DNA from: a virus
Virus record (IMG/VR): IMGVR_UViG_3300022700_000179
Span: 41,714 to 105,713 of that record
Length of the DNA stretch: 64,000 bases
Direction: 5' to 3' (one strand)
The position numbers and the translations under genes are program-made. The notes under the pieces were generated by a model that had not been told where the DNA came from, did no database searches, and worked only from the letters and a program-made list of their open reading frames with translations. Of the stretch, positions 12,823 to 61,445 are shown piece by piece; the first letter of the stretch is position 1; every line of letters starts with the position of its first letter.

Positions 12823-12855
12823 GAGTCTTTTACAAGAGACGGGGATCAGGTTCAA

Positions 12856-13254
12856 ATGCCTAAATGGAATCGTGTATGGCGCAATGTCAATGATCAGTGT
12901 CCACAATCTTGTATAAATTTTACTAATCCGGCTTTACGGCAGCAGTCCGTAGTACTAGATCAGTTTCCGTCTACTGTAGACAATATGTCGCAAGCTATGC
13001 GGATTGTAGCTGAGGGGATTGCTGAACGTGTTGGTGGAAAATCTATTGTTGTTAAGTCCGAATCTGAGCGTATACATGACGTTAGCATGCGTCTATCGAG
13101 GGATGTAGCTAGTTTGGTTTCTATAAATTTTAGTTTTGGTGCCCAAGCAAACTATCCAGTAGAGGTTACTTATAACTATAGGGATGACTCTGGTACCGCT
13201 AAATTCGGTGATATAGCTGAGGTGGTAGAATGGCTGGCCGTCCGCTTAAGGTAA
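12856..13254 (+). CDS. Hypothetical head-module protein
   Basis: Operon context; TAATG overlap with the next gene. Confidence 0.55.
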   Translation: MPKWNRVWRNVNDQCPQSCINFTNPALRQQSVVLDQFPSTVDNMSQAMRIVAEGIAERVGGKSIVVKSESERIHDVSMRLSRDVASLVSINFSFGAQANYPVEVTYNYRDDSGTAKFGDIAEVVEWLAVRLR

Positions 13255-13481
13255 TGGAAGTCTTGTCCAATTCACCACCAAAAAAGTTAGTATATAAAGG
13301 GCGTACTTACGTTCTTGCTAAGACACGAGAAGACTTAATGTGGGAACAGGTAGAGAGACTTTTGTCTCAAATGTTAAACACGGTCAAGTCGGATCGTCCT
13401 TCGATTAGCAAAAAGAGCGGAGTCGCCGGTACATATCAAGAGCTTAAGGTCTTCCTCAAAGATCTAGGCGTCACGCTCTAG
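13254..13481 (+). CDS. Small protein carrying the YKG motif
   Basis: TAATG-coupled start; PPKKLVYKGRTYVLA at 13275-13319. Confidence 0.6.
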   Translation: MEVLSNSPPKKLVYKGRTYVLAKTREDLMWEQVERLLSQMLNTVKSDRPSISKKSGVAGTYQELKVFLKDLGVTL

Positions 13482-13564
13482 CTTCAACTCACACACCTCT
13501 CTGCCGCGACATTATCTGAATTACCAGACTGGTGTGTTGTATACCTGCAACATCAGGAGGTCTC

Positions 13565-15874
13565 ATGGCAACAGAGGGTAAAACGAGAGATGGACCGTCA
13601 ATGACTCCAGAGGAGAAATACGCCTCTGAGTTGCTTGATACGGCGGCAAAGAAAAAGAATAAAAAACCCAAAAAGAAAAAGAAGACTGACCACGAAACCA
13701 ACGTCCAGAAGTTTTTGCGTGACTTCTTCGAATTAGGGAAACCTAAGAAGAAGACCAAGAAAACTAGTCCCGGACTACCTGGTTTGTATTGGAGAGGGGT
13801 CGAAGATTCACCCTTCTCTTATCAACCCGGTGGTGATGGTGGAGGGGATGGTGGGGGCGGTGGAAATGGTGGGTCGGCTGCGAGTGTTGCCGAGACCGAG
13901 GAGGAATTGATGCGCCAGCTCCGAAAGAAGATGGATCTAAAGGGCAAAAAGGCGGGTGGAGAGAACCCCTATGTTGGTTGGGATAATCTTCCTAAGGGAT
14001 GGACCAAAGAGTCCGTAGAGAAGTTCTGGGGTTCCCTGACTGGTGATCATGAGCACAAGTTCACAGAGTGCAGGAAGAAAATGGAAGGGAACGTAGACGA
14101 TCCCGATGCTTTCTGTGCGTCGTTAAAGGATATGATGAAGGGTACTGAAGAGTGGCGGGGTAAAGGCAAAGGCGCTGCTAGTACCTCTTCACGACCGTAT
14201 AGTGCTGATTCACTCGATGAAATGGGCTTCGATCCTGGACGTGCTCAAAACGAGTTCCGCCAAGAAACTGGACCGGTAGAAGAAGCCATCCAAATCGAAG
14301 AAACCCCACCTACTGAAGTCGATCCCGAAGAAGTTGAGCCCGTTGACATGGAGGACGTATCTGCGAATCCTCCCCAAAGGGCAGATATGGCATCAGGAGA
14401 AGAGACACAGAACGTGCCCGACGGGCCAGAAGCAATGGAGGATCCGCAGATGCAAATCCACAAGGGAACCGAAGAAATTTTTGAAGTAGATCCAAGTATG
14501 GTTGAGGAGCTAAACGTAGCCGTTGACCTGGAAGTTGGCGAGGACGATGAGGATGATTACGCGTCGCCTGTCCCGAGTGAAGGGGATGAGATGGAAGCCG
14601 TAGAGGACGAGGAGGATGACCTGCTCGGTGACGAAGAAATTCCAGAGGTAAGCGACGAGGAAGTCGAGTACGAGCTGGAGATGGAGGCTCCTGAGGAAGA
14701 TTTGGGCGAGATGGAGGAGGAAGATGAGCTGGAGGAGGCGTGCGGATCGAGAGGGGATCGCGCGAAGCTGTATAATTCTGAGCAGCCTGTCCTTGTAAAG
14801 GAAGATGATGTTGAAGTTGTTGATGAGGGACGTGGACACGCCGGTGCAACCCCTGATTCCCCGCCGACTACCTTAGAGCCCGAAGATGCGGAGGCTCCTA
14901 CACTCCCACAAAGCGACATCAAGGTACCTGCGATCGATCCTGCGGAAAAAGAGAGCACTGACGTGGTGTATGAGGTCGTAGTGCCTGCGTCGTCTTTAAC
15001 GGACGAGTCGATCGATCGTATCGAGTTGGCACGCTACGGCGAGAACTCAGACGATCCAATGTATATCGTCCTCTTGGACGGCGATCCCGTTGCTAAGATT
15101 GCACTTTCAGACCAAAACCTCCCCGATGAGCACCGAGAGACCTTCCTCGATGACAACTATCCCAACTTTGTCCTTGAGGGCATGGAGCAGTTTGGTGTCC
15201 AGGCGACTTTGAAGACGGTTAACGCCCGTTTCTACGCGGCCCGTGCAAATGAGGGTGAAGTAGCCGAGTCGGTTAAGGCCCGTGTCGCCTCTGAGATGCA
15301 CGAGGCGCGGCAGGTAGAGATCGGTCGGTTGAAAGACGATCTGCTGAATGTGGCCTCGGTAGTTCTGCAGGGAACTATGAAAAATTACCTGTTGGACAAC
15401 CCCCTGCGTGATGCACTGATCTCACGGTTCCATCGTGCCGGTGTGGATCCCAGTGCTGCGGTTGACGAAATTGACGATGCCTTCCGTTCAGCTGGCCAGG
15501 ATTTCTTCAACACAGTTCTTGAAACAGCTGACGAGTGGCTCGGCCTCCCCAAGGAAGCCCTTGAGCACCATGTCCAGAAAATTCAGGAAATGTCGCATAG
15601 ACATCCTGGATACGACATGGTTCAGGGTTACAACGAGGACGACATCCCCGAAGCAGTCGAGCCCACCCCGGAACCTCGTCAGTATGCTGCACAGGCGGCT
15701 GCACCTGCCCCAAGTGTGCCCAAGAACGTTCCCTTGCGCAGCGCGGCCCCACGAGCACCCTCCGGTGGTGGATTCAAGCAGGATAAAGAGTATTGGAAGC
15801 GTCAGCTGAACCTCAGCGGTCGTGTAGCGAACGCTTCTTTGGCTCAGTATCAGCTCCGTAACCCCAAACAGTAG
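13565..15874 (+). CDS. Acidic scaffold/prohead core-like protein
   Basis: AGGAGG SD, very D/E-rich centre, helical C-terminus, located between portal and protease, followed by a strong hairpin. Confidence 0.55.
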   Translation: MATEGKTRDGPSMTPEEKYASELLDTAAKKKNKKPKKKKKTDHETNVQKFLRDFFELGKPKKKTKKTSPGLPGLYWRGVEDSPFSYQPGGDGGGDGGGGGNGGSAASVAETEEELMRQLRKKMDLKGKKAGGENPYVGWDNLPKGWTKESVEKFWGSLTGDHEHKFTECRKKMEGNVDDPDAFCASLKDMMKGTEEWRGKGKGAASTSSRPYSADSLDEMGFDPGRAQNEFRQETGPVEEAIQIEETPPTEVDPEEVEPVDMEDVSANPPQRADMASGEETQNVPDGPEAMEDPQMQIHKGTEEIFEVDPSMVEELNVAVDLEVGEDDEDDYASPVPSEGDEMEAVEDEEDDLLGDEEIPEVSDEEVEYELEMEAPEEDLGEMEEEDELEEACGSRGDRAKLYNSEQPVLVKEDDVEVVDEGRGHAGATPDSPPTTLEPEDAEAPTLPQSDIKVPAIDPAEKESTDVVYEVVVPASSLTDESIDRIELARYGENSDDPMYIVLLDGDPVAKIALSDQNLPDEHRETFLDDNYPNFVLEGMEQFGVQATLKTVNARFYAARANEGEVAESVKARVASEMHEARQVEIGRLKDDLLNVASVVLQGTMKNYLLDNPLRDALISRFHRAGVDPSAAVDEIDDAFRSAGQDFFNTVLETADEWLGLPKEALEHHVQKIQEMSHRHPGYDMVQGYNEDDIPEAVEPTPEPRQYAAQAAAPAPSVPKNVPLRSAAPRAPSGGGFKQDKEYWKRQLNLSGRVANASLAQYQLRNPKQ

Positions 15875-15903
15875 TCTTTGATTTTTAGTCGTGCTCTGCA
15901 CGC

Positions 15904-15937
15904 GGAGGCAGGGTTGAATCCAACCCTGCCTCCTTTG
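15904..15937 (+). terminator. Hairpin/terminator after the scaffold-like gene
   Basis: GGAGGCAGGGTTG-AATC-CAACCCTGCCTCC-TTT, a 13-bp perfect stem. Confidence 0.7.
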
Positions 15938-15966
15938 GAGGGCGCGAGCCACAAGGAGCAGTTTGG

Positions 15967-16797
15967 ATGTTGACTCTTCCCAATATATATACAAGCTCTC
16001 ACAGAATAGTTTCTAGCGGTCGCGGGATACATGTTGGTGACACTTTCTTTTCCCAAACACAGAATGGGGACATATATTACGATGAGCCTAATTTTATAGA
16101 GGGCCATCGGCTAGAAACGCTTCGCGCAAACGGCGGTTCTAGCATACGTATAGCTGGAACAGAACTAGGCAAAGTATCACAAAACTGTGCTTGCGGTTTT
16201 TTGGACGTGTCATGGTTACCTTTGGCCGCGAAAGCGTACAAGATAAGTCCCGATATTAAAGATTATGTCTTGGTAGACATCCCAATTGTACTGGCGAACG
16301 TACCTAATAGAAACGGCGACTGCTTTACTTACAAAGAACTCACTACCTTCCGTCCAATTATTGGCATGCCGGCGTTCAAGACGTTCTATGGCAAGCCCGC
16401 ACACCAGGATCACGATAATATGGATCCGACGCGTGCAAAGGGGGTTATTTTCGATGCAACACTTACCCCCTTCCGCGGCGTTTGGCATGTAAAAATACTA
16501 AAAGGCTTCGACCGTACCAAGGATCCGCGTCTTGCAAAACTGGTTCGCCAGAAATCACGCATTGGCCATTCAATGGGTGCGTTGGTTGAGCGGACTGAAT
16601 GCGGGTTACCATGGTGTAACTTCCATTCAGATGGGCGTATAACTTGTGACCATATTAATGGAGGTCAGGGTAAGGGGGATATTATTAAGGGACATCTAGT
16701 CTATGAGAACATGATGGACTACTATTTTGTGGAATGTAGTTCAGTAGAAGATCCAGCATATCCGATCGCTCTTTCTCGAGAAATATGGGGAGTGTAA
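15967..16797 (+). CDS. Prohead maturation protease (HK97/herpes-type fold, putative)
   Basis: PNRNGDCF, KTFYGKP..QDH (His), HSMGA (Ser), ECSSVEDPA; head-module position. Confidence 0.7.
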   Translation: MLTLPNIYTSSHRIVSSGRGIHVGDTFFSQTQNGDIYYDEPNFIEGHRLETLRANGGSSIRIAGTELGKVSQNCACGFLDVSWLPLAAKAYKISPDIKDYVLVDIPIVLANVPNRNGDCFTYKELTTFRPIIGMPAFKTFYGKPAHQDHDNMDPTRAKGVIFDATLTPFRGVWHVKILKGFDRTKDPRLAKLVRQKSRIGHSMGALVERTECGLPWCNFHSDGRITCDHINGGQGKGDIIKGHLVYENMMDYYFVECSSVEDPAYPIALSREIWGV

Positions 16798-16801
16798 CGA
16801 A

Positions 16802-17689
16802 ATGAATCCTCCGTCCCAGATAAAGTATAAGGGCACCATTTACAAGCTTAGATCTGCAGGGGATGTTCAGGTCTCTCCGGGCAGTCCAGTGGGACCGGAG
16901 GGGGTATTATTGATTGAACGTCAATACCCTACGGAATCTCGGGCATTGTATATCGACAACGATGGTGATTTCTTTGCCAAAATAAAGCTCAATTGGCACA
17001 AGAGTAATGTGTTTGACGAGTTAACATTTGATCTTTCTCCGGCAGGAGCGAAAGAGTTTTTTGATAGCCTCAAAACAGAAAGTGACGGTAAGCTGAGCGC
17101 TAAGATACCGGACGAGCAAGTTAGGCAATTGTGGGGGCCAGCTGTGCCAAAAACGCCGGAGGGTGTGGATCCCAAAAAAGTCATAGATGTAAGTGGGCAC
17201 TACATAAAGGTATCTGATCTTCCGGCTGACATAAAGCGGGAAGCTGCATACACATTTGAGGGTCTTCTTCGGGAAGAATTGGCAAGTATAAGTAAAATAG
17301 AAGGTCGATTCTGCTCCGATCCTTTTAGCGTAATGGGCTTGCGCTACAATGTTCCAGAACATGTAGTTCAGCTGTTTGCAGAGACGCTTACAAACGCTAT
17401 GAACGAGTATTTAAGAGAGCAATTCAACACACAGGCTACGGTAGACATAAATGTAGCGGACTCCTGTGGTCCTGTAGACGGGCATGGGGGTATATACGTA
17501 TTCGGTAATGGTAGAGAGGAACTTAATAACTTACGTGTACATTTAGAGGGGAACGTTTTGTTACCTGTATGGCGGGAAGTGTGGAATAGGTATCAGCAGG
17601 GAGAGATACCTGTTGGAGAAAAGCAAAGAGCGTTGGCTTCTTTCAAAGTCAAAGTACTAGCTGCAGTTCGTCCGGAGAACGGTCAGTAG
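16802..17689 (+). CDS. Hypothetical protein with N-terminal YKG motif
   Basis: MNPPSQIKYKGTIYKLRSA. Confidence 0.6.
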   Translation: MNPPSQIKYKGTIYKLRSAGDVQVSPGSPVGPEGVLLIERQYPTESRALYIDNDGDFFAKIKLNWHKSNVFDELTFDLSPAGAKEFFDSLKTESDGKLSAKIPDEQVRQLWGPAVPKTPEGVDPKKVIDVSGHYIKVSDLPADIKREAAYTFEGLLREELASISKIEGRFCSDPFSVMGLRYNVPEHVVQLFAETLTNAMNEYLREQFNTQATVDINVADSCGPVDGHGGIYVFGNGREELNNLRVHLEGNVLLPVWREVWNRYQQGEIPVGEKQRALASFKVKVLAAVRPENGQ

Positions 17690-17702
17690 GAGATACAGAA
17701 TC

Positions 17703-18446
17703 ATGACACAAAAGACAAAAAATAGTGATTTGTCATTTAGCGAGCTTCTAAACCTGACTTCCGTTTCTGCGGCTAAAGGTGACAAGAAAAATAAGGTTAA
17801 GGACGAGCGGCAACCTGGATCAATTCCGGACGACATACGCCGTAGAATGAGTGATCCACTAGCCGATATTTTTTCAGAAAAGGGAATGGATCTCTACGGA
17901 AAAGCCGTTTCTGCTATACAGAAAGAGTTAAAACAAATATTCGACGAGGGTATTTCAGACCTCAGCTCTGTTATCCACAAAAAGCTTGGTGAGTTTGGGT
18001 ACGAGGAGTCGGTAGATCATTTCCGTCCCTGGATGTCTTCGATAATCGATGATGTCAAGGAAAAGGGAATGGGAGAGGTAACTGGTGCCCTTGAGGATAT
18101 GCTGAGTCAGATGTCAACGGATTACGCAGAGGGCGAAGAAGAAACCGAGGGTGATGCACTACTGAGTGTAGATACCCCTGAAGTTGGCGACGAAGAGGTA
18201 GAGGTCGTTGAAGAGGAGAAGGTGGAAGAACCGGAAGAACCGGAAGCAGCTCCAGAGGGTGGCGAGGAGTTGGACTTAGGTTCCCTTCTAGGTGGAGAGG
18301 AGACCCCTGCAGCTGAAGCGTCCAGCAGTGGTGAGCGTAGATATAAACCCACGCCAGTTGTCAAGGAAGTTTTTGCGTCTTCTCGTAGGCGCCATCGCCT
18401 TTTGGAAGCGGCTTCTAATTGCCTTGATGAGTTGGACCGCGACTAA
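17703..18446 (+). CDS. Hypothetical acidic protein
   Basis: AGGAG SD; E-rich tract. Confidence 0.6.
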   Translation: MTQKTKNSDLSFSELLNLTSVSAAKGDKKNKVKDERQPGSIPDDIRRRMSDPLADIFSEKGMDLYGKAVSAIQKELKQIFDEGISDLSSVIHKKLGEFGYEESVDHFRPWMSSIIDDVKEKGMGEVTGALEDMLSQMSTDYAEGEEETEGDALLSVDTPEVGDEEVEVVEEEKVEEPEEPEAAPEGGEELDLGSLLGGEETPAAEASSSGERRYKPTPVVKEVFASSRRRHRLLEAASNCLDELDRD

Positions 18447-18458
18447 TCCAGGAGGCAA

Positions 18459-18935
18459 GTGATGCCCAAGATTCCAGAGGAGATACAGTATAAAGGGTGC
18501 CGCTACGTATTAGCTGGGCGTAAACGTGGGCGCAAATCTGCTACTATTAAGGACAGTGGCTACCGACACGATGGCATCTTGTTTTACATAAATGTTCTCT
18601 GCCGAAGTAAGACAGGGAACGACTTGCCGTCTAGATTTGCAACTAGAGTAAATACAATCCCGGAAGGTATCTCACTTAATGAGCAGGAAACCGTAGCTGC
18701 GAAAAAAGCCATTGGAGATAGTGGCAAAAAGAAAGACAGCAATCTGTGGCACATACTAGTACGAGATGAGGGTTGGTTTTGGGCGGATGATCCTAAGAGT
18801 GTACAAAACGCTGTACCGATCCAGCAGACGTTGGATCTCGTTGAAAAGTATCGCGAGTGGGACCGCCCAGGAACCAATCCTTTAATCTATGCGGAGATCG
18901 TCACAAAAGTTGTTGGCGGCCGTAAAAGGGATTAG
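18459..18935 (+). CDS. Hypothetical protein with N-terminal YKG motif
   Basis: AGGAGG SD; IPEEIQYKGCRYVLA. Confidence 0.6.
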   Translation: MMPKIPEEIQYKGCRYVLAGRKRGRKSATIKDSGYRHDGILFYINVLCRSKTGNDLPSRFATRVNTIPEGISLNEQETVAAKKAIGDSGKKKDSNLWHILVRDEGWFWADDPKSVQNAVPIQQTLDLVEKYREWDRPGTNPLIYAEIVTKVVGGRKRD

Positions 18936-18938
18936 TAC

Positions 18939-19994
18939 GTGTTAGTAGTCTCCTCTGACAATTTCTCTGACTACGTCAAGGAATACGATCGCCGTGTTCT
19001 TGAGGGAATCAGTAAGAAAAATGAGGGAGAATATGGTGGTATAGACTTGATTGTTGAGGATTGGGGTGGGTCTCCCACTTTCCCAGGTATCGCACTCCTC
19101 ATTAAAAGATTCGACTTGAATCTGCCTAGTACGGTAGAGGAACTGCAAGAAGATTTTGATGATGTGGCCGATCTGATTAGCTCGTTAGAGTTTAAGGTAA
19201 TGAATAAAGTAGTTCGGCCTATTAACAATCTCAGTGAGGTAACAAGGGTAGGGGGCGTTTACTCCGTTGGATGGGATGGAAGAAAACTAGCTCTTATGTT
19301 CAATGCCGGCCCATCTGAGGTAGAAGATCTAATGTCGGTGAAGGATAGGATAAACGTTGCTACTACACAGCAAGAAAATGCTGAGCTGCTCCGATGTGTA
19401 CGTTCAGCGGTAGACCACATTAAGTCCGCGGACCTCGGCAGAGCTTCAGAGGTAGATGCTCAGCACCTCAATGAGGCAATAGACATACTCGAAATATGTG
19501 GACTTTCAGACAAAACTAAGGACGTACGGTTGGCGCTCAAGAGTTTTGACAGCAACATAGAATCCGCTAGAGAGTATATTTATGGCCCTACTGGCCATGG
19601 CACAAACCGTGGCGCCCTGTACGATTTAATCACTTTCGCTGAGTCCCTCGAGAAAAATGTTGAGTCCGGACCGTTAGAGCAAGGTAATTCCAGGAGTCTT
19701 CTAATGCACCCGATTTCGCCTTACATCGTCTATCAAGGTTCGGTATACAAGAAGGTAGCTTACGACCTCCCTAAGGATATGAAAGGCGTAGAAAAATGTA
19801 AGCCCGAGGATTTTGATCCTAAGCGTGATCCTGCCGACCAAGAATGGTGTACGTACAGTTACGACGGTAAACTGCGCGGTCGTTTTAGAAAGAAGAAGGA
19901 CGCGTTACAGCACAAAGTATTTTTGATTAACATGTATTGGCAGAAGGGAAAGGGCAAGAATAAACCTAAGGGTAAATATTGGCGTAAGAAGTAG
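18939..19994 (+). CDS. Modular protein with internal YQG motif and C-terminal EKC..WC..YDG module
   Basis: PYIVYQGSVYKKVA at 19719-19760; C-terminal module shared with the 27441 ORF. Confidence 0.6.
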   Translation: MLVVSSDNFSDYVKEYDRRVLEGISKKNEGEYGGIDLIVEDWGGSPTFPGIALLIKRFDLNLPSTVEELQEDFDDVADLISSLEFKVMNKVVRPINNLSEVTRVGGVYSVGWDGRKLALMFNAGPSEVEDLMSVKDRINVATTQQENAELLRCVRSAVDHIKSADLGRASEVDAQHLNEAIDILEICGLSDKTKDVRLALKSFDSNIESAREYIYGPTGHGTNRGALYDLITFAESLEKNVESGPLEQGNSRSLLMHPISPYIVYQGSVYKKVAYDLPKDMKGVEKCKPEDFDPKRDPADQEWCTYSYDGKLRGRFRKKKDALQHKVFLINMYWQKGKGKNKPKGKYWRKK

Positions 19995-20032
19995 CTGGCT
20001 ACTTCACTTCATCCATCCGACAAAGTATATAC

Positions 20033-20311
20033 TTACATTATAGTAGTCACGTAGAAGCCAGCGACATTACCCTGCAACATCATCACGGCTTCACCTCGCA
20101 ACATCAGACGGAAGCAACATTAATCGAGACGGACACTGTTGGTCTGTCCGGACTCTGCGGTCAGCAACATCATTTCAGAGCGCAGGTTTCGTCCAGGTCG
20201 ACAGCTAACTGGGAGGCAAGATTAACATTGCTTAGTACCTCTCCACGTCCTGAAAGCAATTGACCTGGTTTCAGGTCGTATCTGTTTAACCTGTTTTTGG
20301 AGGAAAGCCAA
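20033..20311 (+). promoter_or_regulatory. Capsid-operon leader: late-promoter-like site, GCAACAT repeats and hairpins
   Basis: TTACATTATAGTAG at 20033; GCAACAT at 20074, 20098, 20114 and 20164; hairpins GGACA..TGTCC (20131-20149) and GACCTG-GTTT-CAGGTC (about 20262-20277). Confidence 0.5.
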
Positions 20312-21067
20312 ATGGCACTGCTTCCCAACGCGTCTGTGAAGACGAAGGTAGACTTCACTCGCAGCCGGTTTGAATGGAAGCGCCAGTTTGAGGTTGCCGC
20401 TACCGCGAATATCGTGGAAGAGGGGTCTCTGCTGCAGCGCATTCCTGACGCCGCCGGTCTGAAAGAGGTGGTCGATCTCAGCACGAATGCAGGTTCCCTG
20501 CGTCCGGCTGGTATTTCCCTGCAATCTCGAATCTCTGCTACCACTTTCGCGTGGGTAGAGGAGGTCGTGGTTCCTAGTGGTGCGCCATACACGGTGCAGC
20601 TCAGCAAGACCAACATCATCGATTCTGGTGGTGGCATCGCTGAGGCCGCTGCGTGGGACTACAACGCATCTGCGTACCTGAATGTAGTAGCGGGTGCTCC
20701 TCTTGGTACTCAGTTTGAGGTTGTCCCTCTAACTGGTCTTACCACATTCAACGTGGCCGAAGCGGGTCACAGCGTTCGTATGATCTACCGCTACAACTTG
20801 ACTGCTATTGAGCGGGATGAGTTGCTGCGGCAGTCGCACGTAAACCGCGGAGCCGAGGATCAGTTCGGTCTCATGACCGTCGCTCAGGGGCACTGCGTGG
20901 TTTACACGACCATGTATGATGCACAAGAGAAGTACCTAGTAGGGGACCAGCTGACTCTCGATAACAACGGTCTGTTCTCTAAGTCTGGGGCTACGAATTT
21001 TGGAGTGGTCATTTCGGTTCCGACCGCTTCCGATCCGTACCTGGGCGTTGAATACGACGCTGCTTAA
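20312..21067 (+). CDS. Head decoration/cement-like structural protein
   Basis: GGAGG SD, immediately upstream of MCP, beta-rich, C-terminal G.V.SVPT..DPYLGVEY; codon style like the MCP. Confidence 0.6.
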   Translation: MALLPNASVKTKVDFTRSRFEWKRQFEVAATANIVEEGSLLQRIPDAAGLKEVVDLSTNAGSLRPAGISLQSRISATTFAWVEEVVVPSGAPYTVQLSKTNIIDSGGGIAEAAAWDYNASAYLNVVAGAPLGTQFEVVPLTGLTTFNVAEAGHSVRMIYRYNLTAIERDELLRQSHVNRGAEDQFGLMTVAQGHCVVYTTMYDAQEKYLVGDQLTLDNNGLFSKSGATNFGVVISVPTASDPYLGVEYDAA

Positions 21068-21092
21068 TAGCTGATCCAAAGGAGACTTTCTA

Positions 21093-22238
21093 ATGAAGAC
21101 TTTCTCACGGAAACCATCTCTTCGGGATCGGCAGGGAAACGATATCGCCCATGGTAAGGCCTTCAAGGCTAACCCCCGTACGGGTAGTATGTCGTTTTCT
21201 GACAGCACGCCGCTGGTCGGATCCAATGGAGAGTACAATGCAGGTAGTGACCGTCAGCTGGCCGAGGTTGTTGACGGTATCGTAAAATTGGCTCGTCGTG
21301 GTGAGATTCACTACGAGGCGGGCACTGAAACCACTGCACAGGATGTGTCAGCCTGGAATCAGGAAGGCCATCTCGTGCAGGCAGCCCTGGCAGAGCGCGT
21401 GCCTTCGCAGGAAGGTCCGTTCCAGGTGCTTGGTGAAGTTTTCACCGACTCCGTTTCTGAAACCATGGGCCGCATGGGCTTCACCAACAAGGTGGTAGCC
21501 CAGCAGGACGTGGCTGAGGGTGGAACGGCACGTGTGCGCATCCGCCAGAAGGATGTCACTTCCTGGCTGATGCTGACCGACGGTCACACCGTTGAGTCCC
21601 TCATCCGTCAGAAGTACATCTATCCACGTGGCTACAACATCGAAACCCTCGTTATGATGGGTGAGGATGAGATCCACGAGGCTGGTGCACAGATCATCGA
21701 GGAAAAGTACAACGATGCGTTGGAAGCCACGATGGTCCGTGACGACAACATTACTAAGTTCCTGCTGGACCAGGCGGCAGACACACAGAATGACGTGATT
21801 GCTTTTAACGCATTCACTCCGAATGTGTTTGTTACCCTGCGTAACCAGATCTGGCAGTGGAGCCTCCCCGTCCCGCATTGCCTTATGGCTATCGACTTGT
21901 GGGACGACTTGTTCGCTGACCAGGACTGGGCACGTTGGTATTCGCCAATCGAGAAGCACGAACTGGCAGTCGAGGGTAAACTCGGTCGGCTTGCTGACAT
22001 CGAGATTATTACCGACGGCTTCCGTTATGACACCTTGCAGGTCCTCGACCCTGGCGAGGTTTACTTCTTGAGTTCTCCAGCAACTCTGGGTGTGAAGGCC
22101 AACATGATCGCGCTGAATAGCACGGTTGTTGACCAGCGCATGCTCGGACGCGCTGCTCGCGGGTGGTTCATCTTCCTGCGGCAGGCAACCATCATCGGTA
22201 ACGCTAATGGCGTTTCCAAGGGTATCCGTCTCTCCTAG
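21093..22238 (+). CDS. Major capsid protein (HK97 fold)
   Basis: AAGGAG SD, 381 aa, C-ending codon bias, EGKLGRL...ITDGFRYDTLQVLDPGEVYFL (recalls RSL1-like MCPs), followed by a terminator. Confidence 0.85.
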   Translation: MKTFSRKPSLRDRQGNDIAHGKAFKANPRTGSMSFSDSTPLVGSNGEYNAGSDRQLAEVVDGIVKLARRGEIHYEAGTETTAQDVSAWNQEGHLVQAALAERVPSQEGPFQVLGEVFTDSVSETMGRMGFTNKVVAQQDVAEGGTARVRIRQKDVTSWLMLTDGHTVESLIRQKYIYPRGYNIETLVMMGEDEIHEAGAQIIEEKYNDALEATMVRDDNITKFLLDQAADTQNDVIAFNAFTPNVFVTLRNQIWQWSLPVPHCLMAIDLWDDLFADQDWARWYSPIEKHELAVEGKLGRLADIEIITDGFRYDTLQVLDPGEVYFLSSPATLGVKANMIALNSTVVDQRMLGRAARGWFIFLRQATIIGNANGVSKGIRLS

Positions 22239-34056: not shown

Positions 34057-34506
34057 CTACCACATTTGTGCTTTGGGATCGTCGCCTAGCCGCAAAGCCT
34101 TGACCAACCTTTGAATATCATTCTCATACGTCTGTGCCCTGTTCCATCTTTCCCCACATACTAAGCAAGTTACCTTACCTTCCTCCCCCTTGAAGTGCCG
34201 CGTTCCGCAGGATGGACACACTTGACAGGTTTGGCACACGTGAGGGGCCCTGTCCAGGTGGTGCCAGGGACTGTCAGCTCGGTGGCTAACCTCTCCAGTA
34301 CATACCTGACAGATAGTTCTGGCTTCATGCTTTCTGTGGTGGTACAGGGCCAGCTCGATTTCGAATGCGTCCATCGAATGCCAGATATTCCCACATTCTG
34401 TGCACAGGATACGCTCCCCGACCCCTTTGCTCTTGGTGTTGATATAGTTCCCGTGTTGCAGGGAGTGTCGGTGTTCACAAATGGGACATGTTTTTAGGTC
34501 AGGCAT
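34057..34506 (-). CDS. Multi-CxxC Zn-finger protein
   Basis: Six CxxC pairs; GGAGG SD; own promoter. Confidence 0.6.
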   Translation of the reverse strand: MPDLKTCPICEHRHSLQHGNYINTKSKGVGERILCTECGNIWHSMDAFEIELALYHHRKHEARTICQVCTGEVSHRADSPWHHLDRAPHVCQTCQVCPSCGTRHFKGEEGKVTCLVCGERWNRAQTYENDIQRLVKALRLGDDPKAQMW

Positions 34507-41883: not shown

Positions 41884-42504
41884 TCAGACGACATTGTTTA
41901 TCTCGTCGACCAACTTATATCGTAGACACTGTTTTGCTGTCCAGTTTACGTCGTGCTTGAGTATTTCATCCAGTTTCTCCGGAGGTACTCTTGTGTGTTC
42001 AACATATGCTTTTTTGATAAGGTTCATATCAGTACGTACGTCCTTTATAAAATCCTCGGCTTCACTGGCTTTGCCCCAAAACCCCGTTTTCAATTGGTGG
42101 ATCATCATCGTTGCATGGGGCCTTATAATTCTACGATCGCCACCAATAACAGGGAAAGTAGCGGCACTTGCTACCCTGCCGCTTACCACTGTGATTACAG
42201 GTGCCTCTGTTTGTAATACCGCGTCCAGCATTGATAACCCTGCTGATAGGTATCCACCTTGGCTCTCTACATGTAAATAGATTGGGATAGGATCTTGCAG
42301 TCCGTAACGAATCCGCTTTGCTGCAAGTACGGCGTCTAGTTCGTGTAATGCTCTTTCTACCCTAAGAGACGCCTCGAACGATATGTCGGCGCACAGATAT
42401 ATTCTATTATCAACGGTTTCAACTCCACCGTCACTGCTTGGAAAAGACTCGTCATTACTAGTGTCGTGTTTGGTGTCTGCGTTGCTCAAGTTAGTATCCC
42501 TCAT
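41884..42504 (-). CDS. clpP: ClpP-family protease
   Basis: IYLHVESQGG, GRVASAAT (Ser), MMIHQ (His), HDVNWTA (Asp), YKLVDEI. Confidence 0.85.
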   Translation of the reverse strand: MRDTNLSNADTKHDTSNDESFPSSDGGVETVDNRIYLCADISFEASLRVERALHELDAVLAAKRIRYGLQDPIPIYLHVESQGGYLSAGLSMLDAVLQTEAPVITVVSGRVASAATFPVIGGDRRIIRPHATMMIHQLKTGFWGKASEAEDFIKDVRTDMNLIKKAYVEHTRVPPEKLDEILKHDVNWTAKQCLRYKLVDEINNVV

Positions 42505-42528: not shown

Positions 42529-43536
42529 TTACACTATACGGTTTATCCGTGCTATCCAGCTCTGTTCGTACTGTCGAACTGCTAAGTCGTCTACTGTACA
42601 ATCCCACCCCTCTTTAGTTCCGAAGAAACCTTCTTTTTGTACAGGGTACCAGTGATACAGACTGCGATTGGCCTCGTACCAGAATGGGTACTCATTACAA
42701 CACGGGCATTTTTCTACTAGTGGTGCTTGAACCAGCTCTTCATCTTTGTCACTAAAGCGGTCGTCTTTTACGATGAGTGGTTTACCGAATACTTTGTGGT
42801 GCTCCAATTGCGCGCGGGTAAGCATCTTCAGTATATTCATTACATCTGGTGGGTATGAAAGTGGCAAGCCTACCTCTTTGCCATGCTCACCATGCATAGC
42901 GGTATCGTAGCTATGCTTTTTGATTAGGTTATGCAGCCATATCCAGTATGTATCCAGTATGCGTGTAGGTACTCCAGTAGAACCAAGGTAGTAACAAGAG
43001 TGTGCAACCATCCTGCTGCGACTACCAACCGGTAACGTAGCTGTGCCAAAAGCTGTGGCAAACCCGTAGCTATATACATATAAACGTAGCCCAGTTGGGT
43101 AGTCATTTACGGCTGTTGGCCTGATTTTACAGAATGGACATCGTGGTAGTGGTCGTTCCGTTTTACCTTGTTGCTCTTCACTGGATTCACTGTTGTTACT
43201 ATCATCTAGTGCAGGCTCTACTACAGATTCTATAGAGCCTATATAACGACTGGGTAGCGTAATGATGGTACCAGTACGGACATATTTTGCTGCTTCTATT
43301 GCCCTTGCCATTTCCAACTTTGATTCGTATCCCTTTAACGGATCTACTCTCATTTTTGTGTCTAATTGTAGCCTAGCCTCTATTTCCCATTCTTGTACTG
43401 TGCCCCGAAATGTCCGTATTCCGTAAGGGTTTTTTGTGCACTTATGGTATAGTCTGCCATCACCGCGTTTGGACCATTTTTGTGACGGGTGTTTGCCACA
43501 CCAAGGGCATTTAGTATTTACAGTTCTGTTAAACAT
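42529..43536 (-). CDS. Protein with three CP.C...H Zn-ribbon-like repeats
   Basis: CPWC..LYHKC, CPFC..HSC, CPCC..LYHW. Confidence 0.5.
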   Translation of the reverse strand: MFNRTVNTKCPWCGKHPSQKWSKRGDGRLYHKCTKNPYGIRTFRGTVQEWEIEARLQLDTKMRVDPLKGYESKLEMARAIEAAKYVRTGTIITLPSRYIGSIESVVEPALDDSNNSESSEEQQGKTERPLPRCPFCKIRPTAVNDYPTGLRLYVYSYGFATAFGTATLPVGSRSRMVAHSCYYLGSTGVPTRILDTYWIWLHNLIKKHSYDTAMHGEHGKEVGLPLSYPPDVMNILKMLTRAQLEHHKVFGKPLIVKDDRFSDKDEELVQAPLVEKCPCCNEYPFWYEANRSLYHWYPVQKEGFFGTKEGWDCTVDDLAVRQYEQSWIARINRIV

Positions 43537-44442
43537 GCTTTATGGAGTATCCGGTACCCTGTTTTCTGAATGTCCATTCTCCATAGAACTTATCTTCTAA
43601 TACTAGAGCTTTTTTAAGCGTATCTTGCAGTTCAGAGAGAAACATACAGTAGGTACATCTTTCATGGCAATCTTTGAACAGTAGTCGTGGTAAAGACCTT
43701 CCATGTTTCTTAAAACCTATGTATTGGAGGGTTGCGTGGAATTTGTAGTTGTCACGCCACTCTATGCTGGTTACAGTACGTTTCTGCGACGGTAGTAAAT
43801 TTCCGTCTTTGTCAAAGGGTATCCTCCAGGTCTTAGCTGCGCCGGCAGGGGCCAACCTCTACATCCCCTCTGCTTTTTCAAGGCTTCTTAGTTTTGCGTA
43901 GTAGTCGTTCATCCATTTATTGACGTCTTCTCTTGGGCGTCTTGGGTAGAACAGTTGATTGCGTTTGTAGTCAATGTTCTCACCCGGTAGCTTCATCGAC
44001 CGTATTTTTTCCCTTTCTTCGTTAGTAATACCCCCAACTCCAGCTTCAGGCAAATCCTGAAAATCAGCTAGGCTCATTTATCTCTCCTCAGATGCGTGCG
44101 CCACTTAGTTCCCATTTTATGGACGCATGTGCTCAAGAAGGGGATTAGCTCCTCCTCTACAAACACGGCTTCACCGCTGTCTGCATCGTAGCGCTCCCTA
44201 GCTTGTTTTACAGCATCGTCGTAGTCCATCAATGGTAGAAGATACATTATCCCTGGGTCTACAACAGGCAACTCCATAATCTCGTCCCACATAGGGTGGT
44301 CGGGATCATACCGTCCTAAAATCACGCCGGGCAGTTCCATGCAATACTCGCACCCGGGATATAATTCTAATACATACCAACTGCCATCTGGCCCTGCGAT
44401 TCTGGCACCTATATTACCTCCGATACAGCCGCATGCCCCCAT
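43529..44442 (-). CDS. Three hypothetical ORFs (43529..43855, 43859..44077, 44074..44442)
   Basis: Coupled ORFs. Confidence 0.45.
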
Positions 44443-44727: not shown

Positions 44728-45441
44728 TTACTTTTCTACGGCGATGTACTTACAGCCTTCCACGCTACCGTATATTTGAATGTCTACACTTATTTGCGCT
44801 TCTACTTCTACTGAGGTCTCTGTTTTACGTAGTTCGCTGTAGTCAGCATTAATCTTGTGGTTAAGCTCTAGCTCATGTGGAAGTACTATTATGTTGTTCT
44901 CTGGTACCACCCGTAGTGTATCGTAACGAAAACAATCTGTCAAAATATTTACAGCCCGATCTTTGTCTGTGTGCCGGTTTTCTAGAAGCGTACCGGCGTA
45001 GCCTTCTTCCAACATTCCTCTTTCTACCACTGGTGAATAGACCATCCCAATTGCCGACAACTGCCGTAGATCATTTAGAATGCTGGCTGGTACAATAATA
45101 TTATGATCGAGCAGTGAGCCGCCTAGCATGCTCCTTAGCGTCTCTAGCGAGAACCCATCCATCGTGCTTCTATCAAAACTTTCATAGGCAAAGTCAAAAA
45201 AGGCACGTTCAGCGTAATTTGAAATAGTACCAACCAGGTTGTTGATAATGTACTCATGGTATATACTATTGATCTCTCCATTTGGTAGTTCAGAGTATTC
45301 CATCCATTGAAATGGTCCTAGTATGCGAAATATTGGTTTTTTGTTTACGTCGTTTTTTGCGACTCGGATGGCTTTTGGTAGGAGTTCTACCTTTTTAAAT
45401 TCGTCTAGTGCATCCTGTATAAGTTGTTCGCTCTGCATCAC
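44728..45441 (-). CDS. Truncated paralog of the major capsid protein
   Basis: YSPVVERGMLEEGYAGTL..ILTDCFRYDTLRVV aligns with MCP YSPIEKHELAVEGKLGRL..IITDGFRYDTLQVL. Confidence 0.7.
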   Translation of the reverse strand: MMQSEQLIQDALDEFKKVELLPKAIRVAKNDVNKKPIFRILGPFQWMEYSELPNGEINSIYHEYIINNLVGTISNYAERAFFDFAYESFDRSTMDGFSLETLRSMLGGSLLDHNIIVPASILNDLRQLSAIGMVYSPVVERGMLEEGYAGTLLENRHTDKDRAVNILTDCFRYDTLRVVPENNIIVLPHELELNHKINADYSELRKTETSVEVEAQISVDIQIYGSVEGCKYIAVEK

Positions 45442-45526
45442 TTGCCTCTTATCGTGTTACTCTTCACGGACGTTAACTAGTTCTGTCGTTTGCTGTCTCT
45501 CAAGTTGATGGTCTATAAACTGGTTA

Positions 45527-46201
45527 TCACTTTAGTTTTCCTTTCTGCAACGCTTTCGAGTTAATCACACAGACTCCATCAGATCTCTCACGTAAGTAGA
45601 CCGGACCGTCTACGTCCGCAAAATAGTTTTTGTAGTCTGTCTTAGGTTGATAGGTAGCGTTCGGATGCAGTAATACATTCGCACCGCAATCTGAACACGT
45701 AAGTCGGTACCCGTGATTAGGATCTTCGGGACTTGTATATATCTCCCCCTTTGGCTTGTACTCTTGTTTTACATACATGGGTCCAGAACAGGCAGTGCAC
45801 GTATAATCGCACTGAACGCTAATATCGTAAGGGATGCCTCTTAAAATAACTCTCCGGTGTTTGAGTGGATCGTCTTTGAGTGGATCGTCATAGCACACAT
45901 ATACGCACCCAAAGTGTACACTATAATAAAATTCCTTCTTGCAGTCATTACATACGTAGACAGCAAATGTAGTATTCGGATTACCTGGGCAGTCAGGAAC
46001 ATCATCCTCCGGTACTCGCGGAAACCAGCCCATGCAGGTAGAGATTACCCCCTCCGATTTATCCAGGTCGACACTGCCACAAAACGGGCACTCGGGATTA
46101 TTCCAGTCCAGATCTGGGTCTGGTCGTTCTTGTACGTAGTCAATTAGGTTACCTTTGTTGAATTGCATTGTCGTATTACTTCTCCTTGGTATCGCCACCA
46201 T
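45527..46201 (-). CDS. Zn-ribbon protein
   Basis: CPFCGS, CNDC, CTAC, CSDC; 15-nt tandem repeat encoding DDPLK twice. Confidence 0.55.
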   Translation of the reverse strand: MVAIPRRSNTTMQFNKGNLIDYVQERPDPDLDWNNPECPFCGSVDLDKSEGVISTCMGWFPRVPEDDVPDCPGNPNTTFAVYVCNDCKKEFYYSVHFGCVYVCYDDPLKDDPLKHRRVILRGIPYDISVQCDYTCTACSGPMYVKQEYKPKGEIYTSPEDPNHGYRLTCSDCGANVLLHPNATYQPKTDYKNYFADVDGPVYLRERSDGVCVINSKALQKGKLK

Positions 46202-46588: not shown

Positions 46589-47332
46589 TCACGAACTTGT
46601 CTCTTTAGCTTGCTCCGAAGACTTAATTGTTTCTATCGAAGTGCCGCAAAATGGACACGAGACCACAAGAGCGTAAACCGGATCTGGATAACCACAGTGG
46701 AGTGATATGTAATAGCCGTCCGTGTCATTGTCTGCATCTTTAGCGGTCATCCACCGAATGAAATATTCTGCATCCGAACAACAACCCTTAAAACCGTCTG
46801 GGTGTGGCATAATTTACTCTGGATTTTCTGGATTTACATCATGAATCTCGATATAATAATCGGCTGTTACTATTGATGTCAATCTGTATGGATGGTTTTC
46901 GTCATCGTATTTGTGCACCGGAACGCCGTCGTTTCCATCAGCGTTACGTTTACGGCAGTAACTTTTCGCCAACTCAATGTCATCGAAGACAGCTTTAATT
47001 CGGTAGTCTGAGTAATCACCAGATACAACAATATAAATGCTACTCATCCTCTCACTCCTTTTATCATACTCCCCAGATGCTACCAGATCTCCGTATTTCT
47101 GCCAACGGCGAATCATCTCTTCAGCGATCTCTAGCCTTTCTGCTGGTGTGAAAAACTCTTCCGGTCTAAAATCAGGCAACATACCTTCTCTAAATCTGGT
47201 GGCATCTTCTCTTCGTTCAAGCATATCGTCGAACCCACCAGTTAAATCGAGGTCAGGTGACAATCCAACTACACCAAAATATGTGTTAACAATCTTGCCG
47301 CTTTGGAGTCTCCATTTATCTCGACTATTCAT
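46589..47332 (-). CDS. Two hypothetical ORFs (46589..46810 with CPFCG; 46814..47332)
   Basis: Coupled ORFs. The second shares YIVVSG.Y.....F....A..YC with 54822..55370. Confidence 0.5.
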
Positions 47333-47688
47333 TTTCGTGCGTCCTCGTTCTCATCCCAACCGTGCTTCCCACCCGATAGTTTTTCGCGGTTCATCTGTGC
47401 AAGATCTTCAAGCGAGAGTCCAACCAGGTGGGTCATGATGGACAGATAGTAAAGACAGTCCCCAAGTTCGGCGATCAGCTTGTCCTTGTTCGGTTCGTGC
47501 CCCGGTTTCCACAATACCTTTTTGATATGGTCGAGGGTCTCACCAGCTTCACCTGCAAGTCCCATTGATGCGTGGAGTAGTTGTTCGCCTGGAAGCTCGT
47601 CAACGCTTTGCCATGTCTTCAACGCCCGAGACTGGAATTCATCGGGTAAATGTGGATAACAAAAACGATTAAGGTTGTTCGTATTCAT
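47329..47688 (-). CDS. MazG-like nucleotide pyrophosphohydrolase
   Basis: GLAGEAGE..D..KK, ELGDCLYY, L.D.A.MN.EKL. Confidence 0.85.
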   Translation of the reverse strand: MNTNNLNRFCYPHLPDEFQSRALKTWQSVDELPGEQLLHASMGLAGEAGETLDHIKKVLWKPGHEPNKDKLIAELGDCLYYLSIMTHLVGLSLEDLAQMNREKLSGGKHGWDENEDARK

Positions 47689-53806: not shown

Positions 53807-55376
53807 GATATTTAACGCACCTTTTTCTAAGTAACATTGTTGTCCAAGTGTACAAATCCAATTCGGCATCGGGCCCAACTATCACCCAAGCCAAAAACCA
53901 GAGTACAGTAAATAGGACTAACGCATACTTAATCCCGGAATAGAGTTCGAATAATCTGCACGCGGCTTCTTCAGTCATGACAGCACCCCCAAAATAAATC
54001 CAATGAGTCCGCACATTGAGCTTATAGCAATCAATAACAGCCAAGTAGGACGAGAGTCAAGTTTTTCTATAACGGCAATATCGACTTTTGCTTGGTTTAC
54101 GTCGTAGTAAACAAGTGCTTTCCTAGCGTAGGGTGGCATGTCTACAGGCTGTTCGGCATCTATATCAACTACTTGATTACTCATCGGTGCTATTCCTTTC
54201 GGTAACGTAACCCGCACTTCCTACAATGTTAGGTGTGAGTGGGCGTGTTACGTACCATCCACAGTTCTGGCACTCTACTAAGTGATAATCGGCTCGCTCC
54301 TGCTTAGTCACGTTTCGGTACCCTGGTCGGGCGCCGCAACAGACAACTTCATCGGCGTTGACTAACTGCTTGCTCTCGACGTACAAATAAGTGAAGCAAT
54401 TAGCATCTGACTGTATGTTAGGGCTACCGCATTTTTCACAAACAGGAGAAGCAATATGAACGGATGGAGATGGGCGCATGCTATTACTACTTATTCCGTT
54501 TTCTGTTGCCGTCTCTGAACATGTACATAAAATTACCAAGTCGGCGCTCGTCTTCATCTACGCCGTTTGTTCGAGTTGGCACCGGCACCCGTTTATCGTT
54601 TTCACCGCACCCATCTCCCCACGTGTTACAATCCGGCACCTTGAACGATACGCCTATTACTAGAGACGCCAAGATCAAAACATGGACGTACAAAATACTG
54701 CTCCTAGCTCTATCGCTCAACTTCAAACTATTTTTGGTTGTGAGATACCACATTGTGAAGAAAACTACAACCACAGAAAATATGATCACCCAAAATGTTA
54801 AAATAGGCCACAGCATCGAATCTACTCCTCTTCTAAGTCTAGGACGGCCATCCCGTCTTCATCGTATTCAGTTGGCCATTTATTGTCTTCCAACAAGAGG
54901 AGACGCGTTTCGTTGGCCAATTGAACAGCATGCTGTTCGTCTTTTGCGAACACATCAACCTGCATATTATGTTGCCTAAGTAACTGCTCAATACACAGCT
55001 CTTCAGGTGATGCCAGAGCTTTTTCACTACCTACTAGGACACCATTTTGTGGGCCGCTCAATAAAATGGTGTTGTCTCCATTCCACACAGAGTTGATACT
55101 AATTGGGCGTACGTAGTTTACGCTTCCATCCTGGGAGATAGTTACCTCGTATCCACGTTCTTCTGGTACGTCGGGTACTTCCGGATCTAGCTCATGTTCC
55201 CCGACCCAATACTCTGGCCGGTACGGGTATTCTTGATATTTCTCCTCGCCTGATTCTTTGTTCGGATTGTGGATAAGGCAATAGTCCAGCGCTTTTTCTT
55301 TAGACGAAAATATGTTGTCTACGTTTGGCTCATACACACTTCCACTATACACTACGTACACTTTATCCATAAGCGG

Positions 55377-59101: not shown

Positions 59102-59785
59102 TTAGGAGGTAAGGTCGTCCCAGTTAGTTTTTGGTCGTACCGCCTTACTACCCTCTTTACAAAGAGGACAGCTTTTCTCTTTCCAAGTTGGAAGTCGTTC
59201 GGACACTAAACTTAAAACGGCCCTTCCACCTAGGGTGTTTTTACCAGATCGGTTAACGAAAACCCCAACAAAAGAGGCGACTGTAGCTCCGGTTTCCTTG
59301 ACTGCGTCTATAGTTAGTTGGGTCGTTTCTCCGGTGGTCAATACGTCTTCTACTACCAAAACGCGATCCTGTTTCGTAAGTTCGAACCGTTTCAGTTTCA
59401 TGCTTTTGGAACCACGTTTTGACTGCGGTTCTGTAAACATTGATTTAACGGTACGAGAACCGTCGTTGGTACCATATCCAAAAAGGCCGTGAATGTGTGA
59501 CGCCACAACGTGCGCTATGGCGACCGCTCCCATAGCACTACCAACCACAGCCGTTGGAGGACTACATACACCAAGCCGATCGGCAAGCACAGCGGTAACG
59601 AGATCGAAGCAAGCTTCATTAAGCAGCAAAGGGTGCTCCAGAAGCTTACTAGTATTGATGAAGCCGTTACTGTGCCTCCCACTAGTTAAAAGGGCGTGGG
59701 GCTTTTTTGGGTTCCCGCCGTGGATCCAGAGAGCCCCGACACGCTTCAGTTCATCTCTCCACTTAACCTCTAATTGAACACTCAT
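59102..59785 (-). CDS. pyrE: Orotate phosphoribosyltransferase-like PRTase
   Basis: LLTSGRHSNGFIN, G.AMGA, PRPP loop VLVVEDVLTTG, C-terminal CPLC. Confidence 0.8.
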   Translation of the reverse strand: MSVQLEVKWRDELKRVGALWIHGGNPKKPHALLTSGRHSNGFINTSKLLEHPLLLNEACFDLVTAVLADRLGVCSPPTAVVGSAMGAVAIAHVVASHIHGLFGYGTNDGSRTVKSMFTEPQSKRGSKSMKLKRFELTKQDRVLVVEDVLTTGETTQLTIDAVKETGATVASFVGVFVNRSGKNTLGGRAVLSLVSERLPTWKEKSCPLCKEGSKAVRPKTNWDDLTS

Positions 59786-60533: not shown

Positions 60534-61445
60534 TTAAGATTCATCATCGAAGAATACATCCGGAGTAAACAAACTTCGGAATCCGCTGGCTCTCTTATGT
60601 CCCCCTCCACCGAACTTTTTGGCTATTTTGGAGACGTCACACTGCTCTGTGTCTGAACGTAGCTGGTACACGTACTTACCGCTTTTGTCTACGCTATATA
60701 TACATGCGAAGTCAATGTCTTCGTCCCGTATTAGTCTGTGCCCTATATCAGATGCAAACAACGGGGAGTTTACTAGAGCGACCCTTAATATTTTGTCGTC
60801 GGATAAGTAGGTACCTTTACGGTGCAGTGAGAGTAACCAATTTATATCCTGTTTCTGTCGCCGTAGTATAGCTTCGCCTTCTGTAATAATTTCGTCAAAG
60901 TCTGTAGTGCCCTGCACTGACTGATGTGGAAATCTCTGCGCAATTCTATACCAAGCATCGATAGTTTTAGGGAAGCTTCTAAGCCACGCGGTTACCTCTT
61001 CTGTATGCTCCAGTTCATTAGTCCAAAGATCTCTATCTTGTACGTAACGACTTAAAAGGTCTAATCGATCCATTAAATCCGGATCCTTGGATAGTGGTCC
61101 CACCATTTTTGCGTCTTGTGTCACGTAGTCAAACGCCATCCGTGCGCCGCTTCGCTGCATGTCGAAATGTGCGAATGGCAGTCCTTTACATGCCTGCTCC
61201 GCGCTTTTGTGATGGTCTAGTAGAACTAGTTTAGTAGCAAGATCATCTATCCTCTTCAGCACTTCGCGTGGGTAAGAAAAATCCACAATGAAAACTGCGC
61301 GGTTCTCAAATATTTCGTCCGGTGGCACAGCGTCACCATGTTCTGCTGGAATCAACTCGGCTTGCTTGTCAGTAGCAAGCCAGAAGGTCAAGGCCCCACA
61401 AATACCATCTTCGTCATCATGATGCACTATAAGTGGACTACGCAT
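60534..61445 (-). CDS. DHH/DHHA1 phosphoesterase (NrnB/oligoribonuclease-like)
   Basis: H..EDG, IVDFSY, LDHHKS, SGA, QDRDLW, LRS, GGGGH..ASGF. Confidence 0.85.
   Translation of the reverse strand: MRSPLIVHHDDEDGICGALTFWLATDKQAELIPAEHGDAVPPDEIFENRAVFIVDFSYPREVLKRIDDLATKLVLLDHHKSAEQACKGLPFAHFDMQRSGARMAFDYVTQDAKMVGPLSKDPDLMDRLDLLSRYVQDRDLWTNELEHTEEVTAWLRSFPKTIDAWYRIAQRFPHQSVQGTTDFDEIITEGEAILRRQKQDINWLLSLHRKGTYLSDDKILRVALVNSPLFASDIGHRLIRDEDIDFACIYSVDKSGKYVYQLRSDTEQCDVSKIAKKFGGGGHKRASGFRSLFTPDVFFDDES

Follow-up and report, generated by a model that had tools for sequence, protein, structure and literature searches.

The window analysed here is the final 64 kb (64,000 nucleotides) of a 105.7-kb viral contig, from an uncultured huge phage, recorded in IMG/VR (IMGVR_UViG_3300022700_000179), and it holds, in addition to the gene of the major capsid protein (MCP), a much shorter open reading frame (ORF) that is related to it. 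A first-pass annotation, made from the sequence of the window, had described this ORF as a second, truncated MCP homologue lying in the early region and had proposed it as a candidate capsid decoy. The ORF is an optional accessory gene that belongs to a sporadic set of MCP paralogues, 236–278 amino acids (aa) in length, found in a clade of huge phages. It is probably a functional, neofunctionalised paralogue that uses the capsid core as a binding module and not for shell building, a reading to which we incline by a little more than an even balance. The features on which the argument turns are the following (positions are those of the window).

44728–45438, minus strand: short MCP paralogue, 236 aa from the ATG at 45438, stop codon TAA at 44728–44730
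45445–45450, minus strand: Shine–Dalgarno-like AAGAGG, read from the sequence, 6 nt before the ATG
45319–45438, minus strand: N-terminal 40 residues, comprising two predicted helices and a short hairpin, alone without significant MCP similarity
44821–45318, minus strand: region homologous to MCP 179–344 (ORF 41–206), from the profile–profile comparison given below
44851–45102, minus strand: best-conserved core, ORF 113–196, from BLASTP, hhalign and the short-paralogue alignment
21093–22238, plus strand: MCP, 381 aa, the parent family of the paralogue (phrog_2522, NF042927, 6wkk)

The 237-aa frame of the first-pass annotation is indeed present; translation more probably begins at the ATG at 45438, one codon downstream of an alternative GTG start at 45441, and the same 236-aa ATG form was chosen by the gene caller of the protein database.

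Homology to the major capsid protein

The MCP matches the PHROGs family phrog_2522 'major head protein' (1.6e-43) and the NCBIfam family NF042927 'HK97-fold major capsid protein' (capsid_Caudo_2; 1.3e-45, 155.6 bits against a cut-off of 80), with residues 96–377 covering positions 4–280 of the latter model. The MCP has 63 homologues, and a profile of its family (A1) matches Gp27, the major capsid protein of phage G (PDB 6wkk; 2.7e-20).

The ORF fails every family hidden Markov model, with zero match in Pfam, PHROGs and NCBIfam. In direct comparison, BLASTP aligns ORF 135–198 with MCP 283–337 (E 1e-6, 33 % identity), the Smith–Waterman score of the pair is 81 against 33.8 ± 5.0 in 2000 shuffles (Gumbel P ~3e-6), and the match has an E value of 2.7e-4 in an all-against-all search of the ORFs of the contig. 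Comparison of the single ORF sequence with the MCP profile by hhalign gives 96.6 % (E 5.6e-10; ORF 113–197, MCP 261–336), while the A4 profile, built from five short paralogues, scores 99.2 % against the MCP profile with an E value of 7.3e-20 over 164 columns, joining ORF 41–206 to MCP 179–344. When 25 related records were searched with this short-paralogue profile, the MCP was retrieved in 24 of them (E 1e-7 to 1e-20), and no additional short member was found. The N-terminal 60 or 112 residues of the ORF and its C-terminal 43 residues, taken alone, show nothing significant against the MCP profile.

The alignment with the C-terminal half of the MCP that the first-pass annotation had claimed is thus confirmed by BLASTP, shuffling, hhalign and profile–profile comparison, and the blocks it had matched by eye (YSP..EG..G; TDxFRYDTLxV; HNIIV with HCLMA; DGFSLETLR with FTPNVFVTLR) all fall within the computed alignments. 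Sequence comparison identifies the ORF as a true homologue of the phage's own MCP. The core motifs YSP..EG..G and TDCFRYDTLRV are common to the MCP family and all short paralogues, and ORF 41–206 would cover the strand before the spine helix, the spine helix itself, the A-domain and the returning P-domain strands. An internal repeat within the ORF (DGFSLETLR with DCFRYDTLR) was considered and rejected, since 249 of 1000 shuffles score as high.

Elements lost from the short paralogue

The N-terminal part of the ORF can be placed through p4, a 278-aa short paralogue encoded by a relative (G001) whose complete genome has 349,793 bp and direct terminal repeats. BLASTP aligns ORF 6–178 with p4 34–214 (E 4e-5, 24 % identity across 185 residues, N-terminus included), and p4 15–72 aligns in turn with MCP 97–154, after which p4 skips MCP 155–180. 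Because p4 bridges the two proteins, ORF 6–42 can be assigned by transitive alignment to MCP ~116–154, and in the alignment through p4 neither MCP 1–115 nor MCP 155–180 has a counterpart in the ORF. The shortfalls of about 110 N-terminal and about 30 internal residues noted earlier are hence reproduced, the internal gap coming to about 26 residues.

Judged from the alignments, the missing MCP 1–115 comprises an N-terminal extension of ~95 residues, which lies outside the 280-position core model, together with the N-arm. MCP 149–181 is likely the E-loop, since a strand, the turn TDGH and another strand are found there just before the strand and the spine helix. At the level of single residues, of the 27 shared-region positions with a conservation of at least 90 % among 44 MCPs, the ORF keeps 9; the motifs ETMGRxGF and RGW are gone from all short paralogues, G298 and D308 are kept by all of them, and P285, T307 and L315 by most. 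The protein would accordingly lack the ~95-residue extension, the N-arm and a presumed E-loop stretch of ~26 residues, together with two-thirds of the near-invariant MCP residues. With these linking elements and MCP-invariant residues lost, it would therefore be neither a shell-building subunit nor an essential vertex protein.

Predicted fold

The single-sequence model of the ORF in the ESM Atlas, which is independent of any MCP alignment, has a predicted template modelling score (pTM) of 0.82 and a predicted local distance difference test score (pLDDT) of 0.78. The structures closest to it belong to the capsid clusters Phage_capsid_4, Phage_capsid and SU10_MCP (PF25209, PF05065 and PF17236), with template modelling (TM) scores of 0.61–0.70 by query and 0.55–0.65 by the 260–300-aa targets, 199–215 residues being aligned over a span of 2–237. 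A compact HK97-type fold, on which the earlier proposal depended, is thus predicted for the whole ORF and not for its C-terminal half alone. The fold core that would have been kept consists of the spine helix, the A-domain and the C-terminal P-domain strands.

A second, low-confidence model of our own was submitted to an exhaustive VIA-align search, in which HK97-fold capsids or encapsulins, with Z scores reaching 6.6, made up nearly all of the top 50 chains. The search placed model residues 70–232 on HK97 gp5 233–383 and included T4 gp24 (PDB 1yue) among the structural matches; the model had been built on an MCP alignment, so that this comparison is not independent and is illustrative only. 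A Foldseek search of the PDB with a model of pLDDT 50.8 gave no match at E ≤ 0.001 and weak capsid rows only.

Coding integrity and selection

A gene so reduced could be the relic of a partial MCP duplication, non-functional and still open by chance. It would suit a relic that the ORF is a singleton without a close homologue and that scrambled MCP fragments exist in G001 (p5, p6 and a frame interrupted by a TGA stop). Several lines of evidence oppose this view. After ~75 % divergence the 236-codon frame is uninterrupted, for which our own composition-based estimate, assuming ~6 % stop codons per random codon, gives a chance of ~4e-7; in the family tree the ORF branch carries 3.35 changes per site compared with 0.095 for the MCP, and the frame is still open. 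The codon-usage log-odds of the ORF (0.249) equal the mean of long genes (0.248), the other five frames being negative, and a good ribosome-binding site precedes the gene. The ESMFold model is compact and confident. Finally, p4 compared with an 88 %-identical copy in another contig shows strong purifying selection, with 0.064 nonsynonymous (dN) and 0.89 synonymous (dS) changes per site, a dN/dS of 0.07 and zero indels. By these measures the gene is not decaying, and the neutral decay that had been named as one refuting outcome is not observed; a relic is highly improbable.

The GC content of the ORF is 41.9 % compared with 55.3 % for the MCP, so the ORF is not a recent copy of it. Compared with the MCP the paralogue is a fast one, yet it does not clearly outpace the remainder of the genome: many syntenic non-core genes of the contig and G001 are only 25–40 % identical, and the 24 % identity of the ORF and p4 is not exceptional between the non-core genes of these genomes.

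Distribution of the paralogues

A six-frame search with the MCP profile revealed further paralogues both in G001, which has at least three intact ones (361, 327 and 278 aa) in addition to fragments, and in the contig itself (G000).

G001 201946–203031 (L029:1946–3031): p2, 361 aa, aligning with MCP 62–377
G001 232243–233226 (L030:12243–13226): p3, 327 aa
G001 248007–248843 (L031:8007–8843): p4, 278 aa
G001:195508–195759 and 248855–249067: MCP fragments
G000:C1:9166–9672 (L107:3167–3670), plus strand: third MCP-like gene of the contig, 168 aa, ~32.5 kb before the start of the window

To call the ORF the second MCP copy was therefore an undercount, as the contig has a third MCP-like gene and G001 at least four MCP-like genes. 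The 168-aa gene represents the C-terminal half of the p2 group only; it is 30 % identical to p2 198–360 and gives 93 % against the MCP profile in hhalign, and the p2-like group is a supported clade (98/98). Directly after p4 lies a 70-aa ORF in which MCP-like pieces follow one another in scrambled order.

Among 19 more distant huge-phage records (150–424 kb), short paralogues occur in G006 (238 aa; E 1.7e-4 with the ORF) and G011 (257 aa), so that one is present in 4 of the 25 related records, and in 2 of the 6 complete genomes, and absent from 21 and 4, respectively. The short paralogues (236–278 aa) are 14–25 % identical to the ORF, share its retained region and motifs, and all lie far from the MCP gene. 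In the G011 copy a zinc ribbon precedes the capsid core as an N-terminal fusion, and zinc-ribbon proteins also surround the ORF of the contig. In the protein database the ORF forms a cluster with one member from one contig; among 5.8 billion clusters or 1.84 billion representatives it has no homologue save p4 and its copy, which a profile search retrieves, and a tblastn search of 50,697 phage records gave no match. No conserved neighbours are found across the four short-paralogue loci, except for one weakly linked gene.

44074–44442, minus strand: 122-aa gene, two genes downstream of the ORF, 40 % identical to a homologue at L038:12818–13201

This homologue is located 6.5 kb downstream of the p4 copy and none is present in G001, so the linkage to the short paralogue is weak.

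The distribution bears directly on the view that the ORF encodes a minor structural head protein, namely a specialised capsomer, a special-vertex subunit or a capsid-bound accessory. T4 gp24, which appears among the structural matches, provides the model for such use, being a second HK97-fold paralogue of the MCP (gp23) encoded by the same phage, and the huge phages of the present clade keep several MCP paralogues, some of them near full length, such as p2. However, gp24, a penton-building protein of almost full length, has its gene next to that of gp23 and is conserved in relatives, whereas the ORF is truncated and sporadic, lies 22 kb away from the head module on the opposite strand, has lost most MCP-invariant residues, and is apparently without the N-arm and the presumed E-loop segment. 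It is also without the head-associated hairpin tag of the clade. A minor head protein is distinctly unlikely, and the earlier judgement that a gp24-like vertex protein was the less probable option is borne out by the absence from most relatives and the residues lost. The hairpin tag is found on neither the ORF nor any paralogue, while the positive control carries it, and the suggestion that the ORF chaperones the tagged cargo therefore gains nothing.

Genomic neighbourhood

The contig is ~30 % complete according to CheckV, which implies a phage genome of roughly 350 kb. On the plus strand, positions 1 to ~34 kb of the window form a head and packaging block, within which the head module (terminase, portal, protease and MCP) spans 7086–22238.

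7086–9578, plus strand: large terminase
10034–12373, plus strand: portal
15967–16797, plus strand: prohead protease
20297–21067, plus strand: virion protein

This block is syntenic with 262.6–297 kb of G001, and the MCPs of the two phages are 80 % identical. Between 34 and 64 kb of the window all genes are on the minus strand, and most of them lack a counterpart in G001, so that the ~30-kb block around the ORF is mostly not common to that genome. The recognisable genes of this block encode a thymidylate kinase, an HNH endonuclease, MazG, a ClpP-like protease, a phosphoribosyltransferase, a DHH/DHHA1 phosphoesterase and Lar-like zinc-ribbon proteins; those with coordinates are given below.

34057–34506, 42529–43536 and 45527–46201, minus strand: multi-zinc-ribbon, Lar-like proteins around the ORF
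L105:4728–5498, minus strand: multi-zinc-ribbon, Lar-like protein
41884–42504, minus strand: ClpP-like protease (Pfam CLP_protease, 1.7e-23)
47329–47688, minus strand: MazG pyrophosphatase
59102–59785, minus strand: phosphoribosyltransferase
60534–61445, minus strand: DHH/DHHA1 phosphoesterase

The genes of the minus-strand block are accessory, non-structural and poorly conserved. The first-pass annotation had located the ORF ~22 kb from the MCP gene, on the opposite strand and among early genes; the position holds and the surrounding genes are non-structural, whereas 'early' itself is not shown. The nucleotide-related genes among them (phosphoribosyltransferase, DHH/DHHA1 and MazG) may serve host takeover or counter-defence.

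Such a setting would accord with a capsid decoy, a protein made before the MCP that would occupy or desensitise a host capsid sensor (for example CapRel-, Lit- or Avs-like), so that the MCP made late would not set off abortive infection. The ORF lies in a poorly conserved block together with genes of host-takeover type (Lar-like zinc-ribbon, MazG, DHH/DHHA1, phosphoribosyltransferase), its patchy distribution is typical of counter-defence genes, and the predicted HK97 core is kept while assembly elements are apparently lost. Nevertheless, the target of mimicry would be an MCP with 80 % conservation between both phages, whereas the identity of the ORF to this protein is only 23–33 %, and outside one 12-residue motif there can be little surface in common. 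Furthermore, the ORF and its nine neighbours have zero PADLOC match, and the selection on p4 over a short time scale is strongly purifying and not diversifying. A decoy is thus unlikely.

The ClpP-like gene at 41884–42504 has 'ClpP-related head maturation protease' as its top NCBIfam match, below the cut-off; the prohead protease at 15967–16797 is a separate gene, and G001 has no counterpart of the ClpP-like one. A second module of protease plus capsid, formed by this gene and the ORF, was considered and dropped, since the gene order is wrong and five unrelated small genes lie between the two; the absence of ClpP from the p4 locus in G001 is a further ground against it.

Comparison with known systems

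Additional HK97-fold paralogues have been described as vertex proteins, such as T4 gp24, as satellite redirectors of assembly, such as Ccm, and as cellular derivatives, the encapsulins. With its own MCP family (NF042927/phrog_2522/6wkk) the ORF shares the homologous core, the predicted fold and the YSP..EG..G and TDxFRYDTLxV motifs, and it differs in size (236 compared with 381 aa), in lying outside the head module and in being optional among relatives.

The SaPIbov5 protein Ccm is encoded by a satellite, has a complete fold, forms the pentamers of a small capsid and redirects helper assembly (Hawkins et al. 2021, PMC8569155). Like the ORF, Ccm is a capsid-protein homologue that does not serve as the main shell protein and that would act through its likeness to the MCP, and it offers a precedent for regarding the ORF as an assembly poison directed at co-infecting related phages, or as a timing brake on the phage's own assembly, in which the A-domain would enter capsomers and make no links. 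The retention of the A-domain and spine helix together with the apparent loss of the E-loop and N-arm would agree with such a role. Yet a poison would threaten the phage's own MCP, which is the closest relative of the ORF, and the interface residues are largely changed, so that this explanation is very unlikely. In contrast to Ccm, moreover, the ORF is the phage's own gene and is apparently without linking elements, and no satellite hallmarks were seen among the genes around it in the contig.

A truncated, stand-alone derivative of the HK97 fold that is probably a binding or structural protein is also represented by the Family 4 'A-domain encapsulins' (DUF1884/PF08967, PDB 2PK8), which are ~100 aa long, consist of the A-domain only and occur in enzyme operons of thermophilic archaea and Bacteroidetes (Andreas & Giessen 2021, PMC8346489). 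The ORF differs from these proteins in being a phage gene of 236 aa that keeps the spine helix and P-domain strands and has no PF08967 or other Pfam match. In the literature, no paper was found on an optional, shortened MCP copy that is encoded by a phage outside the head module and kept by selection.

Proposed function

The retention of the core, the apparent loss of linking elements, the non-structural position, the optional occurrence and the evidence of selection argue against both a shell or vertex subunit and a relic, and favour a protein that binds through its core. The retained core would bind what the MCP core binds, that is, MCP subunits, capsomers or a factor that binds them, and linkage between capsomers, for which the N-arm and E-loop are required, would be beyond the short protein itself. 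The probability left after the alternatives set out above is given to a binder related to the phage's own capsid or to another role.

A number of points weigh against this interpretation. The dN/dS was measured on p4 and not on the singleton ORF, so that the evidence for selection comes from the nearest relative, and the family tree does not separate one origin of the short paralogues from several (approximately unbiased test, p 0.21). AlphaFold2 reached a pLDDT of 31 from the single ORF sequence and 50.8 from the ORF-plus-MCP alignment, in which residues 92–190 alone are moderately confident. The fold claim consequently rests mainly on the Atlas ESMFold model, and the corresponding model of p4 is unconfident (pTM 0.23). 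Moreover, as the alignments of the ESM model span 215 residues of capsids of 260–270 aa, the ORF may represent a nearly complete minimal HK97 fold that is capable of assembly.

If the core does bind capsid protein or capsid-recognising factors, it would offer a natural handle on the regulation or protection of huge capsids, a direct test of whether capsid-sensing immunity can be countered by mimicry, and a minimal HK97 scaffold of ~236 aa. A broader and rather unlikely extension is that the huge phages of this clade keep assembly-disabled MCP miniatures as conflict proteins, either as mimics that saturate sensors or as cappers of the capsomers of competitors; the HK97 fold would then be a substrate for counter-defence evolution. 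Even if the function of the ORF were trivial, the paralogues indicate far more duplication, shrinkage and dispersal of MCP genes in huge phages than the picture of a single MCP would lead one to expect.

Other features of the window and its relatives

Upstream of both genes that begin at 971 and 6153 (window ~820–970 and ~6060–6150) the motif TATAGTGTGG is repeated, and its reverse complement is also found upstream of the divergent gene 466–819; the motif may be a promoter element. No common promoter-like motif was found upstream of the short MCP paralogue (44728–45438). Two paralogous DUF7336-like genes in the minus-strand block (46814–47332 and 54822–55370) match one gene of G001 at 318.6–319.2 kb. 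In a 388-kb relative (G023:C1:317799–320145, L100), the MCP is encoded in three separated in-frame pieces covering model positions 17–117, 118–203 and 199–375, which suggests introns, inteins or insertions of homing elements.

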